From a virus (lineage: Duplodnaviria > Heunggongvirae > Uroviricota > Caudoviricetes), in the IMG/VR virus record IMGVR_UViG_2713897055_000004: a stretch of 16,767 nt of DNA; one strand, 5' to 3'. Shown here one piece after another: positions 4,278-15,918 of this stretch. Made by a program: the position numbers and the translations under genes. Numbering within the stretch: position 1 is the stretch's first letter; every line of letters begins with the position of its first letter. Under the pieces are notes generated by a model. That model was not told the DNA's origin. It ran no database searches and saw nothing but the letters and a program-made list of their open reading frames with translations.

Positions 4278-4673
4278 TCACATCTCGTATGTAATGGAAT
4301 AAGTCAGATCTGCAGAACTCCACAATGCCATATCGTCATCACGACGATACTCATAGCCCTGCGTAACCATCGCGGTAATCATGCCCGCCAGTGCCGGGAT
4401 CGCAGTTATCGCCGGGTAAATCCGGCTTTCCATCCACAGATCAAGCTCTGAATCCGGTACCTGTGCCGGTAAAAACACCTCAATATGCAGTGTGGCCCGC
4501 CAGGTATCTGCATCCAGCTCTTCACCGGTATACTCTGCATCCGTCAGATAAACCGCGATCGCGGGAAAATCCTCTTCGTCAAAAACAACGGGGCGACCAT
4601 CAAACAGCGTCGCCCCGTGTTCATGCTGCTCGAGTGCATCCAGCACTGCGGCACGAATATCAGTATGTTTCAT
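4278..4673 (-). CDS. U: Tail terminator protein U
   Basis: 131 aa, same length as lambda gpU. MKHT(D/E)(I/L)RAAVLDALE and the C-terminal LWSSADLTY(S/V)ITYEM match. Confidence 0.9.
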
Positions 4674-12710: not shown

Positions 12711-13230
12711 CAATCCACCTGCGCACATTCTCACCGGCTTCAGAAGCCACATCGGATGCTTTCGCGATTTCAGTTTTCACAGCATCAAGATGTACGGGTG
12801 ATATATCAGGGTATTTACGCTGCAGTGTCTGAGGGACACGGACAAGGATCCCTGATATATTCTGTGCCACTCGCTGAAAGATGTAGGTAAATAACTCCGT
12901 CTCGAGGACAAGGCCTTCCTCACGAGCATTTTTCAGCTCCTGTGCATCGGCCTGTGCCTTCGTCAGTCGGTAACGTTCGTAATCAATGGTGCCGGGCTGA
13001 AGGTCTGATTCGCTGGCAGCCCTCAAATCCTCGACCTCTTTACGGAGTTTTTCATTTTCAATATCAGCTTCGCGCTGAGCATACCATTCGATCGCCTTCG
13101 CAGAATCAAAGATGACCTCAACACCTTTTCCTCCACCAGATATCTGAGGGAGCCCCTGAGTTTGCCAGCGATCAATAGTACGTATATCGACATTAAAGAT
13201 TTCAGCAAGCTTCTTTTTATTAACATTCAT
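12682..13230 (-). CDS. Nu1: Terminase small subunit Nu1
   Basis: 182 aa versus lambda Nu1 at 181 aa. M.VNKK.LA.IF...IRTI..WQ.QG(L/M)P...GGGKG.EV..DSA..I.WYA.R.A.IENEKLR.EVE.L matches. Located right next to cos. Confidence 0.95.
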
Positions 13231-13460
13231 TCAGCAATTCCTTATCAAAAATCAGTTACGACATGAAATGCCAAAAAAGACAGATTTTTCAGCGTTCTGA
13301 TGTCGTTTCTTTCTTGATAATTATTTCTTTAAAAACAATAAGTTAACAACAAGAAGAACTGACATGCTTTTTCCCGAAAAATTTTCATAAATAGCGAAAA
13401 CCCGCGAGGTCGCCGCCCCGTAACGGCCCGGATCGCCGGAAAGGACCCGTAAAATGATAA
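13231..13460 (-). other. cos: cos region (cosB with three R-site-like elements, cosN, cosQ-like flank)
   Basis: Minus-strand sequence GGGCGGCGACCTCGCGGGTTTTCGCTATTTATGAAAAT is identical to the remembered left end of lambda. R-like cores TGTCGT/TGTCAG lie at 13255-13265, 13301-13309 and 13357-13366, with the middle one inverted as in lambda cosB. Upstream flank TTTTACGGGTCCTTTCCGGCGATCCG resembles the lambda right end (cosQ side). Confidence 0.85.
13407..13418 (-). other. cosN: cosN 12-nt cohesive-end sequence (GGGCGGCGACCT on minus strand)
   Basis: Exact 12-mer of the lambda cohesive end, in the expected orientation and distance (about 190 bp) relative to Nu1. Confidence 0.85.
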
Positions 13461-13919
13461 TGGTTATCAGTTGCAACAAAATCCAGTTTCTTCCACCATC
13501 GCACCGGACCAGCGACCATGAGGGGACAACGCCGCGCTCCGTTAACGCGGTAAACCCCGGTGTGTATCGTTTTTGATTATCCCCGCACACTCTCGCAGAG
13601 GAGTCTCCCTGTCGGGCTGCGGTCTCTGTTAATGCAGGAATACGGCGACGATACGGCGCATGGCTATGTCAGGCTGAAATGCCTTTATCCGTTAAAAAGG
13701 ATATCAATTAAGTTATCCCGTGTAGGGTATAAGCCATTGTCGAGACCACTCATTGAATGGTCTCTGCAATAACCGATGTCTTTCCATCAGTCCGCCACCA
13801 CAAAGAATCTTTTTTGCCATAAGGCAGGAGGTTCATCTTTCAGTGGCTGCCAGTGTTATTTCCCCACTTTCTGGCTTGGGTTGTTTCGCTGTACTGCCGT
13901 TAATTGGTGAGTCCGGGGA

Positions 13920-14405
13920 TTATTTCAGTTCGTTACCAGGCATTTCTTTTAGCTCTTTCAAATGACAACGATTGAGGCTAAACCACTCCCCGTGCGACCT
14001 ATAGTTGTAATATTTTTGGTGCAATTTGGTTTCAAGCTCTCTATCGGCCGGAATCTTTGCAATTAGATTTAGCTTCCCACCACTCATGCGAGATATCTCT
14101 GAAATTCGTTTATTAACCCTGCGACTAAACCCTATTTTTGTTAGCCCACTATCTTCAGCATGCAGAACGTACACATATGATTTTTGCGAAGCACTGGGTG
14201 CAACTTTGTTGTAATTAATCATGTCAAACATGAAGCCTTGCTTTAGCAAAGTTTCAAAAAAGATAGAATTAACACACCCATTCCTTCTCAGCTCTGCACT
14301 TAGCTTGTCAATTTCCTCTATGATGTCGCCAGACCCCTTTCCACTTATAAGAAAATCTTGGTACATGCGACCAATTCTTGAGGTAATTTCAACAAAGTTA
14401 TTCAT
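13920..14405 (-). CDS. T5orf172 / GIY-YIG-like domain protein (moron; function unknown)
   Basis: 161-aa ORF with ATG at 14405 and AAGG upstream. The C-terminal half has the pattern YVYVL...GLTKIGFS(R)..N.R...I.......L.......ELE..LHQ.Y...R..GEWF, which I recognise as T5orf172/MUG113 (GIY-YIG-like). The ORF is clearly AT-rich by eye compared with the flanking phage genes. Confidence 0.6.
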   Translation of the reverse strand: MNNFVEITSRIGRMYQDFLISGKGSGDIIEEIDKLSAELRRNGCVNSIFFETLLKQGFMFDMINYNKVAPSASQKSYVYVLHAEDSGLTKIGFSRRVNKRISEISRMSGGKLNLIAKIPADRELETKLHQKYYNYRSHGEWFSLNRCHLKELKEMPGNELK

Positions 14406-14551
14406 AGCGTTTACCTTTTAGAAAGATGAGCCTGTTCGCACAGAAAAGCCGTCCCCGAGATGGTCGCCACCATATACGGCAATTCTCAGGCTCAGCTTTC
14501 TGAAAGACTCGGGATTGTTACGCGCTGCGATGCGCGGTTTACTGCAGATGT

Positions 14552-14577
14552 AAAAAAAAAGCCCCGCATCGCGAGGC
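14552..14577 (-). terminator. Rho-independent terminator downstream of Rz/Rz1
   Basis: Minus-strand RNA GCCUCGC-GAU-GCGGGGC (7-bp stem with one G-U pair) followed immediately by U9. Sits 34 nt after the Rz stop. A separate U8 run directly follows the Rz stop (14603-14610). Confidence 0.65.
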
Positions 14578-14610
14578 TCATTAAATGGACTTTGTGATTT
14601 GCAAAAAAAA

Positions 14611-15054
14611 TTATTTCAGGCATTGCGTCCTGATGTACTCCTGCAGGTAGTTAACCTGCGCGGTTATCCTGTCGATTCCACTTCGGAGACGGTAATAATT
14701 GAGTTCAGCATCTGCTGTAAGTCCTGGGCTTTCTCCATCGCCCATGCTGCTGGCTCCGGTCGTTGACTTTGCACAGGTGGCGGCGACTTGCAGGCGCTTA
14801 CGACCAGCAGAAACATCAGCACGGAGACTTTCGATAGTCGCATTAGCATCAGCAAGCTCCTTTGTGTATCTGGCGTCAAGTTCTGCTACATCACGTTGCC
14901 GCTTCTGCATATCATCGATGATGGATGTGGCTTTATCGCGCTGCTCTTTGTAGGCGATGGCGTTATCACGGTAATGATTCAGCCCCAGACTAAGCACACC
15001 ACAGACCACCAGCAGAATAACGGTAAACGCGGAAATAATTCGGTTTATGCTCAC
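14611..15054 (-). CDS. Rz: Inner-membrane spanin subunit Rz (GTG start at 15054)
   Basis: From the GTG: [41 protein letters not shown]...[22 protein letters not shown], collinear with remembered lambda Rz ([39 protein letters not shown]). The ORF-track start at 15147 is an upstream TTG with an implausible N-terminus. Confidence 0.85.
14664..14849 (-). CDS. Rz1: Outer-membrane lipoprotein spanin subunit Rz1, embedded in the +1 frame of Rz
   Basis: ATG at 14849 preceded by AAGGAG with a 7-nt spacer. 61-aa product [36 protein letters not shown]... has a lipobox-like VSAC and a Pro-rich mature part like lambda Rz1 (60 aa). Entirely nested within Rz. Confidence 0.7.
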
Positions 15055-15200
15055 CCCACCAGCCCTGCCGAACTCAACGCCATCCAGGCTATGGAAAGAA
15101 AAAGAGCAACCATCATTAGCGAAAATGAAACGCCGACAATCACACAAATGGTCTTTGTCAGCGTTATGATTTTATCCGATATCATTAGCCACCTCTCCAT
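15051..15200 (-). CDS. Small hydrophobic ORF (49 aa; 44 aa from an internal ATG at 15185), possibly a duplicated Rz N-terminal signal-anchor remnant
   Basis: Not in the ORF track because it is under 60 aa. Its ATG overlaps the Ant-like stop (TGATG) and its TGA overlaps the Rz GTG start (GTGA). Product [49 protein letters not shown] has one predicted transmembrane helix. The segment [22 protein letters not shown] resembles the Rz N-terminus [22 protein letters not shown]. Confidence 0.3.
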
Positions 15201-15772
15201 CAATCCGCCTTTGTTATTTTCCCTTTGCCTGTATCAGCCAGGACAAAATCAATCAGCAGATTCGCTTCGTTTATCAATGTGCGGATTTTTGATACATGCG
15301 CAGCTTTAACCTGTTTCCACTCATTCAGCCCGGTAGCAAACACACTGACAATGTTTTTATCCCGTTGCATGTCAGCGCAAGCCTGATTGAGTTCTTCCAT
15401 CACGCTCATTTGACGAGGATTAACGACAAAACCCTTCGTCCAGTATTCATAGAGAACATCGTCGCACTCTTCCTGATACTGAATGACTCTGTCGCGGATT
15501 TCAGGTTTAACTTTATTTGGGTTGATGGTTTGCAGCCAACCTGCAAGTTTACGTAAAGCAAGACAGATAACCAGACGACGCTGAGTATCACCGGGGAGCT
15601 GAATCATCATTTCGATGATGCAGGTCTTAAATCTCTCTATCAATTTGCGGTGTTGAGACTGCCAGGTCATACCCATTCCCTCAACGACAGGTTTCATGGG
15701 AACGTATGGTTCGCCGTTATGGTTAACCACATAAAGAGAATCGCCGTGAAACGGCACGGTCATCATATTCAT
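15200..15772 (-). CDS. Ant-like protein (P22 antirepressor N-terminal-domain-like), inserted between endolysin and Rz
   Basis: 190-aa ORF with ATG at 15772 preceded by AAGGAA. The N-terminal pattern VPFHGDSLYVV.HNGEPYVPMKPVVEGMGMTWQSQ..KL...F......I......GD.QRR.V.CL.L.KL.GWL.TINP.KVKPEIR is what I recall for the P22_AR_N family. This is a domain-level recollection, not a computed hit. Confidence 0.55.
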   Translation of the reverse strand: MNMMTVPFHGDSLYVVNHNGEPYVPMKPVVEGMGMTWQSQHRKLIERFKTCIIEMMIQLPGDTQRRLVICLALRKLAGWLQTINPNKVKPEIRDRVIQYQEECDDVLYEYWTKGFVVNPRQMSVMEELNQACADMQRDKNIVSVFATGLNEWKQVKAAHVSKIRTLINEANLLIDFVLADTGKGKITKAD

Positions 15773-15788
15773 CGGTTATTTCCTTTTA

Positions 15789-15859
15789 GTGATAACCCCT
15801 GCGCACAGGAATAACCAGCCCAAAGAGGGTTAACCAGACCACTGCCGGTTATCCACCAG
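15789..15859 (-). repeat. Array of four direct repeats with exact 19-bp spacing upstream of the Ant-like gene
   Basis: Minus-strand copies CTGGTGGATAACC, CTGGTTAACC, CTGGTTATTCC and GGGGTTATCAC. The GG(A/T)TA cores start at plus-strand-equivalent offsets exactly 19 bp apart (counted by hand). The array ends about 17 bp before the Ant-like ATG. Confidence 0.4.
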
Positions 15860-15918
15860 GGCTCATCCTGAAAGGTTCTTTGGTTTATTTACGCTTGTGC
15901 GAAGCGCAGAAATGACAA

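Follow-up and report, generated by a model that had tools for sequence, protein, structure and literature searches.

The DNA considered here is a stretch of 16,767 nucleotides of viral origin (Caudoviricetes; IMG/VR record IMGVR_UViG_2713897055_000004), referred to below as the window, whose minus-strand genes form the late lysis and packaging region of a lambdoid E. coli prophage resembling Shiga toxin (Stx) phages. Between an Ant-like gene and the spanin gene Rz lies a small open reading frame (ORF), which a preliminary description of the sequence had placed at 15051-15200 with 49 codons, and which is confirmed there on the minus strand, running from ATG to TGA over 150 nt. With modest confidence, we read it as a conserved gene for a single-pass inner-membrane micro-protein of 43-49 residues, found distally in the lysis cassette of lambdoid E. 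coli prophages, the Stx-type ones included, expressed late, coupled to Rz and accessory in lysis. The features on which this reading depends are the following:

15051-15200, minus strand: small ORF in its RefSeq form (49 aa), phrog_4906, identical to WP_000443009.1
15051-15185, minus strand: conserved core of the family, 44 aa from the second ATG (MISDK...), predicted to form a single long helix and a single-pass membrane protein
15192-15198, minus strand: GGAGAGG, a Shine-Dalgarno (SD)-like sequence 6 nt 5' of the second ATG, within the MERWL codons (anti-SD duplex -7.7 kcal/mol)
15198-15202, minus strand: TGATG junction between the stop of the Ant-like gene and the first ATG of the small ORF, read from the sequence
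15051-15054, minus strand: GTGA junction between the stop of the small ORF and the GTG start of Rz, with the geometry of the ATGA R/Rz junction of lambda and HK75
15200-15772, minus strand: Ant-like gene (190 aa, P22_AR_N domain, phrog_524), a variable cargo, relatives carrying a different ANT or small ORFs in this slot
14611-15054, minus strand: Rz i-spanin with a GTG start (PF03245 and phrog_13 by library matches)
14664-14849, minus strand: Rz1 o-spanin in the +1 frame of Rz (PF06085, lipobox LVVSAC), its start inferred from the 61-aa Rz1 of relatives

Conservation of the small ORF was followed in a set of 91 loci, made up of the window, nine GenBank/RefSeq records, one stray genome contig and 80 IMG/VR contigs, the IMG/VR loci being chosen by peptide patterns, with a possible bias toward intact copies. 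The frame is open in all 91 (24 distinct DNA and 20 distinct protein variants), and the alignment over 43 codons is gapless and without stops; the comparison of the reading frame across related prophages, which had been proposed as a check, thus met neither frameshift nor stop. As regards the possible bias, a nucleotide search (blastn) and tblastn return the same count of GenBank phage records, 276, with a query coverage of at least 80% in 276/276 of them by tblastn and in 275/276 by blastn. Pooled over nine divergent loci, the Nei-Gojobori ratio of nonsynonymous to synonymous substitutions (dN/dS) is 0.435, and with all 24 variants it is 0.51, the small-ORF frame having the lowest value of the six reading frames. 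On the same loci the ratio is 0.10 for R, 0.20 for ant, 0.41 for Rz and 0.48 for the transmembrane part of Rz, and the small ORF is about as constrained as Rz, its bona fide neighbour. The excess of synonymous changes is significant in the most divergent pairs (Fisher p=0.0007-0.005), replacements stay hydrophobic (exchanges among I, L, V, M, F and A), and residues S3, K5, S20, F21, W34, L37 and G41 are invariant even with the two most divergent members.

A sign that the family is translated has also been recorded: the orthologue in O157:H7 Sakai is listed as a translated novel gene, XECs191, predicted to be an inner-membrane protein with one transmembrane helix (Hücker et al. 2017, PMC5597208). 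In lysogeny broth (LB), XECs191 reached 30.0 reads per kilobase per million (RPKM) for RNA and 12.6 RPKM in ribosome profiling (RIBOseq), with a ribosome coverage value (RCV) of 0.43 and a coverage of 0.55, and passed the RIBOseq thresholds; in two brain heart infusion (BHI) conditions it was below threshold (PMC5597208). This listing is weak but independent evidence of translation. Because of conservation, dN/dS, independent ribosome-binding sites (described below) and the RIBOseq listing of the Sakai orthologue, the small ORF is to be taken as a real, selected and probably translated gene, and we regard its coding status as very probable. One earlier suggestion was of a real small membrane protein that modulates lysis: its gene part holds (91/91 intact, dN/dS 0.435, own SD sites, RIBOseq), and this support does not extend to the modulation of lysis.

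The small ORF had also been called unannotated, which is true only of the ORF track made at the first stage, as both RefSeq (WP_000443009.1) and PHROGs (phrog_4906) list it. A 100% identical copy in E. coli O22:H8 RM10809-3 is annotated by PGAP as WP_000443009.1, a 'hypothetical protein' of 49 aa, between a 'phage antirepressor N-terminal domain-containing protein' and a 'lysis protein', that is, in the same ant-ORF-Rz order. Membership in phrog_4906 is indicated both by a full-length hidden Markov model (HMM) match (residues 1-49 on profile positions 1-49 of 49, E=1e-26) and by the shared coding constraint (dN/dS 0.435-0.51, no indels or stops, 91 loci); 43-aa variants match the same profile (E=2e-23 and 2e-19). 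Some GenBank phages annotate the small ORF as a hypothetical protein (for example, ORF53 of P13374/P14437), and others, among them VT2-Sakai and Stx2 phage I, leave it unannotated. The 276 GenBank phage records that carry it are mostly Stx-converting phages. Of 5426 complete E. coli genomes, 1696 contain the 135-nt core, which occurs at 4588 places in all and as many as 11 times in one genome; all sampled rows label it 'hypothetical protein'. When 1.84 billion representative proteins were searched with a profile, only 26 clusters were returned, all of E. coli prophage type, and a scan of one genome per species gave, apart from a spurious Bacillus match, only a 328-nt 'Xanthomonas pisi' contig that is probably a contaminant. 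This contig (L010, NZ_JPLE01000251.1, 328 nt, from the 'Xanthomonas pisi DSM 18956' assembly) holds a 933W-type small-ORF protein identical to that of Stx2 phage I, together with the 3' end of ant and the start of Rz, and is most likely an E. coli phage contamination of that assembly.

Searches of Pfam, NCBIfam, PADLOC and PDB sequences yielded no significant match for the small ORF. In the literature, searched with peptide strings and lysis-cassette terms, it was met only in the bulk RIBOseq listing (PMC5597208), and a comparative paper on Stx phages does not mention it. As an object, the small ORF is thus already known from RefSeq, PHROGs and the RIBOseq list; what is added here is its conserved start at the second ATG, its independence from Ant, its lack of homology to Rz, the conserved geometry of its coupling to Rz, and its membership in an array of mini-transmembrane ORFs.

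In the window, the ATG of the small ORF (15200-15198) has one base in common with the TGA of the Ant-like gene (15202-15200), and its own TGA (15053-15051) lies within GTGA, alongside the GTG of Rz (15054-15052). Both overlaps had been noticed from the letters alone and are correct, so that a stop/start overlap is present on either side (TGATG with ant, GTGA with Rz). The start/stop coupling to both neighbours that was proposed from them stands in the window; across the family the Ant side is not general, and only the Rz overlap is, the inferred Rz start overlapping the small-ORF stop by 4 nt in 76/91 loci.

A second in-frame ATG, codon 6 of the small ORF (15185-15183), has GGAGAGG upstream at good spacing. 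The codons that precede it (MERWL, MEWWL or MGWL) occur only in copies downstream of a P22_AR_N-type Ant, and carry the SD for the second ATG. Copies without this type of Ant begin one codon further in (MSDK..., 43 aa) and have a strong SD of their own (AAGGGAGG, AAGAGG or AAGGGG; -7 to -11 kcal/mol); altogether, the SD sites of the core ATG range from -6 to -11 kcal/mol in four unrelated upstream contexts. Since the extension is confined to Ant-linked copies and those without this Ant type start at MSDK with their own SD, the conserved product is the core of 43-44 residues starting at the second ATG. Ant-linked copies have their two in-frame ATGs 4-5 codons apart (MERWLM, MEWWLM, MGWLM; 15183-15200 on the minus strand of the window), and one variant among them differs by a 3-nt indel that preserves the frame. 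Such a pair of in-frame ATGs formally resembles the dual-start motif of holins; MERWL adds no net charge, and the start is single in copies without P22_AR_N-type Ant.

The P22_AR_N-type Ant lies upstream of the small ORF in 34/91 loci only. Architectures were called by motifs and by inspection of representative loci, the small ORF being denoted (ii): about 40 loci have the order R-(iii)-(ii)-Rz, the window is of the type R-Ant-(ii)-Rz, and about 11 loci have R-ANT231-(i)-(ii)-Rz, ANT231 being a 231-aa antirepressor of a different family (phrog_63). Elsewhere, another mini-ORF and a DNA methyltransferase come between (ii) and Rz. As several interchangeable arrangements are found upstream of the small ORF, the interval from R to the small ORF is a variable cargo site, with the small ORF as its constant right-hand border. 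The mini-ORFs (i), (iii) and (iv) belong to phrog_6632 (with a WKFLLVW motif) and to phrog_1115/4493/3246 (with ISRALAFAIKW / LIRAMAFAIR motifs). Like the small ORF, they are short (28-60 residues) with a single helix, packed stop-to-start in the R-Rz interval and often adjoining it, but their pairwise similarity to its family is not significant (z<=1.4).

These mini-ORFs, of at least two families besides that of the small ORF, fill the R-Rz interval of relatives (1810-1992 in L002; 1861-1998 in L006; 612-824, 961-1077 and ~1090-1175 in L008; ~1380-1480 in L094, which is H-19B), where they adjoin one another, the small ORF and Rz in the same stop-to-start fashion, and in H-19B it is a phrog_6632-type ORF, not phrog_4906, that abuts Rz. 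A phiP27-like E. coli prophage harbours a divergent member of the family (P0034); the genes there run in the order two holins, GH108 endolysin, ANT231, (i), (ii), a 60-residue lipobox protein, HNH and terminase, and Rz is missing downstream of the small ORF. Positions 2211-3322 of L095/L096, a phiP27-like prophage, show the 231-aa ANT, mini-ORF (i) and the divergent member, and then the 60-residue lipobox protein (LLVGC; phrog_7528) in place of Rz/Rz1. Because the Ant type accompanies only 34/91 copies and the phiP27-like copy is without Rz, the small ORF is tied strictly to neither.

The GTG of Rz is the RefSeq start and aligns with the start of lambda Rz. In the window, its best upstream anti-SD pairing, provided by a G-rich stretch, ends 2 nt from the start codon. 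As the start is a GTG and the G-rich stretch stands too near it for normal SD function, reinitiation after termination at the small ORF would be the most economical way to translate Rz, and it is fairly probable that the coupling of the two genes is functionally relevant. Where Rz has an alternative N-terminus (MNRVLCVV..., type B), it has its own ATG and an AAGAGAG SD, 5-8 nt after the small-ORF stop. Rz itself is a mosaic: between codon ~24 (the HYRDNA box, ~14985) and its stop, it has 94-98% identity with Rz from HK75, mEpX1 and Salmonella P22-like phages, Rz directly following the endolysin in HK75 and in the Salmonella P22-like phages. The first ~70 nt of Rz in the window, which code for the transmembrane part, have counterparts only in the Stx-phage lineage, in which the small ORF is also found. 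Co-variation between the variants of the small ORF and those of the Rz transmembrane part is uninformative, since one and the same small-ORF protein occurs with different Rz variants and linkage confounds the comparison. Rz is damaged in two loci of the set, by a frameshift at the end of the transmembrane segment in L042 (~2700), where the adjacent small ORF is intact, and by an N-run or deletion in L026 (~830).

The transcriptional context is set by two further features, at either end of the block:

16047-16580, minus strand: endolysin R (177 aa, Phage_lysozyme family), with a weakly hydrophobic N-terminus
14559-14579, minus strand: intrinsic terminator-like hairpin with a T-run, found by sequence scan, closing the unit of ant, small ORF, Rz and Rz1

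The gap between R and ant is 274 nt. The scan gave one weak promoter-like match, inside ant, and crude consensus scans for sigma-70-like sites found none between R and the small ORF, either in the window or in the Ant-less relatives L002 and L006. Just 3' of R lies a stable 11-bp hairpin (15915-15941, minus strand; ΔG -21.5 kcal/mol, z=-4.6), and a canonical intrinsic-terminator hairpin with a T-run stands at the same place in L002 (1744-1776) and in H-19B; given this terminator in relatives, late transcription would need read-through inside the lysis cassette. Since no promoter is predicted between R and Rz, a hairpin follows R and a strong terminator follows Rz, co-transcription late in the cycle would be the simplest reading, the small ORF presumably being expressed with the lysis genes in a Q-dependent manner.

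The Stx-phage lysis system has been described as a signal-arrest-release (SAR) endolysin acting with a pinholin, and the weakly hydrophobic N-terminus of R resembles the SAR endolysins reported for Stx phages (PMC8136144). In the window, R is without a detectable SD (16581-16602; anti-SD duplex +0.3 kcal/mol) and no holin precedes it; in the near-identical locus L005, a class II holin lies upstream, separated from R by ~1.1 kb that contain a frameshifted ORF and another on the opposite strand. On the other side, the terminator after Rz is followed by a T5orf172/MUG113 gene and then by the terminase genes Nu1 and A. This gene (13920-14405, minus strand), between the Rz terminator and cos/Nu1, encodes a GIY-YIG-like protein of 161 aa with a weak PADLOC match to the candidate system PDC-S57 (E=4e-4), and as L005 has a Rha-family regulator at the same position, its site appears to be another cargo slot.

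What kind of protein would the small ORF encode? AlphaFold2, run with the family alignment, models one uninterrupted helix over residues 2-40 of the 44-residue core (mean predicted local distance difference test score, pLDDT, 89), and the single transmembrane helix first seen in the sequence is borne out by this model and by the charge pattern. Across the 20 protein variants, charges are confined to core positions 4, 5 and 11, apart from a single variant at each of 18, 35 and 44; the conserved ones (D4, K5, K11) are N-terminal only, and core residues 12-43 are uncharged in nearly all variants. A single predicted helix with charges confined to the N-terminus points to a single-pass membrane micro-protein, probably inserted N-in/C-out by the positive-inside rule, K5 and K11 being on the N side. 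No holin family was matched in Pfam, NCBIfam or PHROGs, the sole Pfam match being the sub-threshold DUF7186 (E=0.055). Holins typically have a charged, hydrophilic C-terminal tail after their last transmembrane domain; here the C-terminus, SSAGLVG, is uncharged, rare variants ending in E or carrying R35. PADLOC defence-system models gave no match for the small ORF or for ant, and Rfam none at E<=1 over positions 13000-16767, so that no antisense RNA family, as expected of a type I toxin-antitoxin pair, was detected. A structured RNA or known RNA family was rejected, with ordinary folding (z=-0.7) and a blank Rfam search.

Taken together, these elements suggest a possible course of events. The small ORF would be transcribed with the late lysis genes, and ribosomes terminating at its UGA would probably reinitiate at the overlapping GUG of Rz, the small ORF thereby taking over the role that R has toward Rz in lambda (ATGA overlap). 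The peptide would insert N-in/C-out in the inner membrane, where it might serve as an accessory component making helix-helix contacts with the pinholin, the anchor of the SAR endolysin or the transmembrane domain of Rz, adjusting lysis and not being required for it, a speculation drawn from gene position. A lysis-modulating role for the peptide is accordingly no better than tentative, and it is unlikely that phrog_4906, phrog_6632 and phrog_1115/4493/3246 jointly represent a hitherto overlooked class of proteins that regulate lysis at the membrane, with the pinholin, the anchor of the SAR endolysin or the transmembrane domain of Rz as targets. The array of mini-transmembrane ORFs is the only part of the findings with some potential for surprise.

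Several observations weigh against this reading, at one or another of its steps. The dN/dS estimates pool non-independent pairs over only 42 codons. Disrupted copies exist, as several of the 26 cluster representatives are frameshifted or truncated at the C-terminus, though they are a small minority. The ribosome-profiling signal is weak; it exceeded the thresholds in only one of three conditions, and the lysogen from which it was obtained had not been induced and harbours several prophage copies that are nearly identical. The small ORF is present in 276 of the 559-650 records that match the same endolysin/Rz backbone; about half of the phages with this backbone lack it, H-19B among them, and it is therefore not essential for lysis. 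About 900-930 nt separate it from Rz in seven loci (methyltransferase genes in those inspected, L021 and L047), and in L095/L096 no Rz follows it, so that coupling to Rz is not the sole reason for the small ORF and the link to the spanins is not obligatory. Finally, the conserved positions are not clustered on one face of the helix (conservation moment at 100 degrees, p=0.76 against shuffles), and hence give no positive sign of a specific helix-helix interface.

Two other accounts accept the gene and dispute what the peptide does. According to the first, the frame would be kept only to deliver ribosomes to the poorly initiating GTG of Rz after cargo had split Rz from R, the peptide itself being inert. 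The 4-nt overlap in 76/91 loci, a GTG start whose anti-SD pairing is only 2 nt away, and the similar coupling of R to Rz in lambda and HK75 all agree with it. However, a dN/dS of 0.44, strictly hydrophobic replacements and seven invariant residues (S3, K5, S20, F21, W34, L37, G41) are unexpected of a spacer, as is a constant length with no indel in 24 variants, and intact copies persist where there is no coupling: in the seven loci with a 900-930-nt insert, in L008/L009 with further small ORFs, next to type-B Rz with its own ATG and SD, and in L095/L096. We consider a pure coupling device improbable on these grounds.

According to the second, which seems equally improbable, the small ORF would be a moron-type gene, its small membrane protein being made in the lysogen for the benefit of the host or prophage (for example, by superinfection exclusion or modulation of host membrane proteins), with no role in lysis; HK97 gp15 and the small membrane regulators of E. 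coli are models for such an action. Its association with interchangeable cargo (two unrelated Ant types and other mini-ORFs), its presence with ANT and mini-ORF (i) in the phiP27-like backbone, beside a different endolysin and without Rz, and the RIBOseq signal from an uninduced culture are in its favour. On the opposite side, the crude scans found no sigma-70-like promoter between R and the small ORF, whether in L002/L006 or in the window; the block comes after a hairpin or terminator and shares the terminator that follows Rz, so that the gene shows no promoter and terminator of its own and its expression looks Q-dependent; the low uninduced signal is explicable by spontaneous induction, and PADLOC gave no match. 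The reading of a late, Rz-coupled accessory membrane protein is the one that we retain.

The small ORF had first been interpreted as a second copy of the Rz signal-anchor, or as a scar of the recombination that inserted the Ant-like gene, which now appears very improbable. Both proteins do have an N-terminal hydrophobic helix, and the small ORF and the transmembrane-coding 5' part of Rz, both of which lie upstream of the recombination point at Rz codon ~24, are inherited together. However, the Smith-Waterman score of the small ORF against the N-terminus of the window's own Rz is 21, below the shuffle mean of 22.8 (p=0.68 with global shuffles, p=0.81 with segment-preserving ones; the extra transmembrane control sequences in this comparison are illustrative only), and the nucleotide comparison with the Rz 5' region that had been proposed as a check, made with codon shuffles, gives p=0.22. 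At the family level, z is -1.0 against type A Rz, 1.5 against type B and 2.8 against lambda Rz (p=0.015, uncorrected, one of seven comparisons), while positive controls (Rz type A against type B, mini-ORF i against i, iii against iv) reach z 5-17. The hhalign probability is 0.4%, over one aligned column, PF03245 and phrog_13 do not match the small ORF, and the periplasmic coiled coil of Rz (~100 residues) is absent from a protein of 44-49 aa that ends a few residues after its helix. Moreover, 57/91 loci keep the small ORF, with the same Rz overlap, without this type of Ant, and the phiP27-like prophage keeps it with no Rz downstream. Duplication of the Rz anchor was thus rejected by protein and nucleotide Smith-Waterman, family-level comparison and hhalign alike; the resemblance is the generic look of two hydrophobic helices, and on this sequence evidence the scar or duplication is effectively excluded.

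The remaining account, that there is no gene but a chance frame, or selection on the opposite strand, on an RNA structure or on an upstream-extended Rz frame, can draw on the shortness of the ORF, an antisense-frame dN/dS of 0.55 and an Rz frame open for 31 codons upstream of its GTG (TTG at 15147), but is effectively excluded by the lowest dN/dS of six frames (0.79 for the extended Rz frame), the ordinary RNA folding, the lack of any Rfam match, independent SD sites in four contexts and the RIBOseq-listed orthologue, and is very improbable as a whole. The open Rz frame spans 15054-15147 on the minus strand, overlaps most of the small ORF (dN/dS 0.79 versus 0.435), and is probably not coding.

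The small ORF matters because it is very common and lies inside the cassette that decides on cell burst and on the release of phage and toxin. Should it modulate lysis, it would be an added component of the Stx-phage lysis system with relevance to toxin release; should the mini-transmembrane families be lysis regulators, they would tune the timing of lysis and hence the release of Shiga toxin. Even as a coupling device or dispensable passenger only, it would leave a useful point for annotation: a start at the second ATG, an Rz that probably depends on the small ORF for its translation, and a cargo slot between R and Rz with the small ORF as right border.

Compared with known systems, the small ORF is of the same family as phrog_4906, WP_000443009.1 and XECs191, with no difference found. 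Its junction with Rz has the same 4-nt stop/start geometry as the R-Rz junction of lambda and HK75, except that the upstream partner there is the endolysin and Rz starts with ATG, whereas here it is a 49-codon frame for a membrane micro-protein and Rz starts with GTG. With the signal-anchor of the Rz i-spanin (PF03245), it shares an N-proximal hydrophobic helix, a short basic N-terminus and a probable N-in/C-out orientation, but it is without significant sequence or profile similarity and without coiled coil, ending 3-6 residues after the helix. The type I toxins Hok, Ldr and TisB are likewise small, with a single hydrophobic helix, and similar to it in size; the small ORF differs in lying in a polycistronic late operon with translational coupling, with no antisense RNA family detected and no sequence match. 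The P2 antiholin LysA, encoded between the endolysin K and the spanins LysB/C, and the Mu releasin gp25 (DUF2730) are membrane proteins encoded beside endolysin and spanin genes that tune lysis without executing it, LysA having several transmembrane domains and gp25 being a larger membrane-tethered cytoplasmic protein; the small ORF has no homology to either, but may work in a similar way, by tuning lysis.

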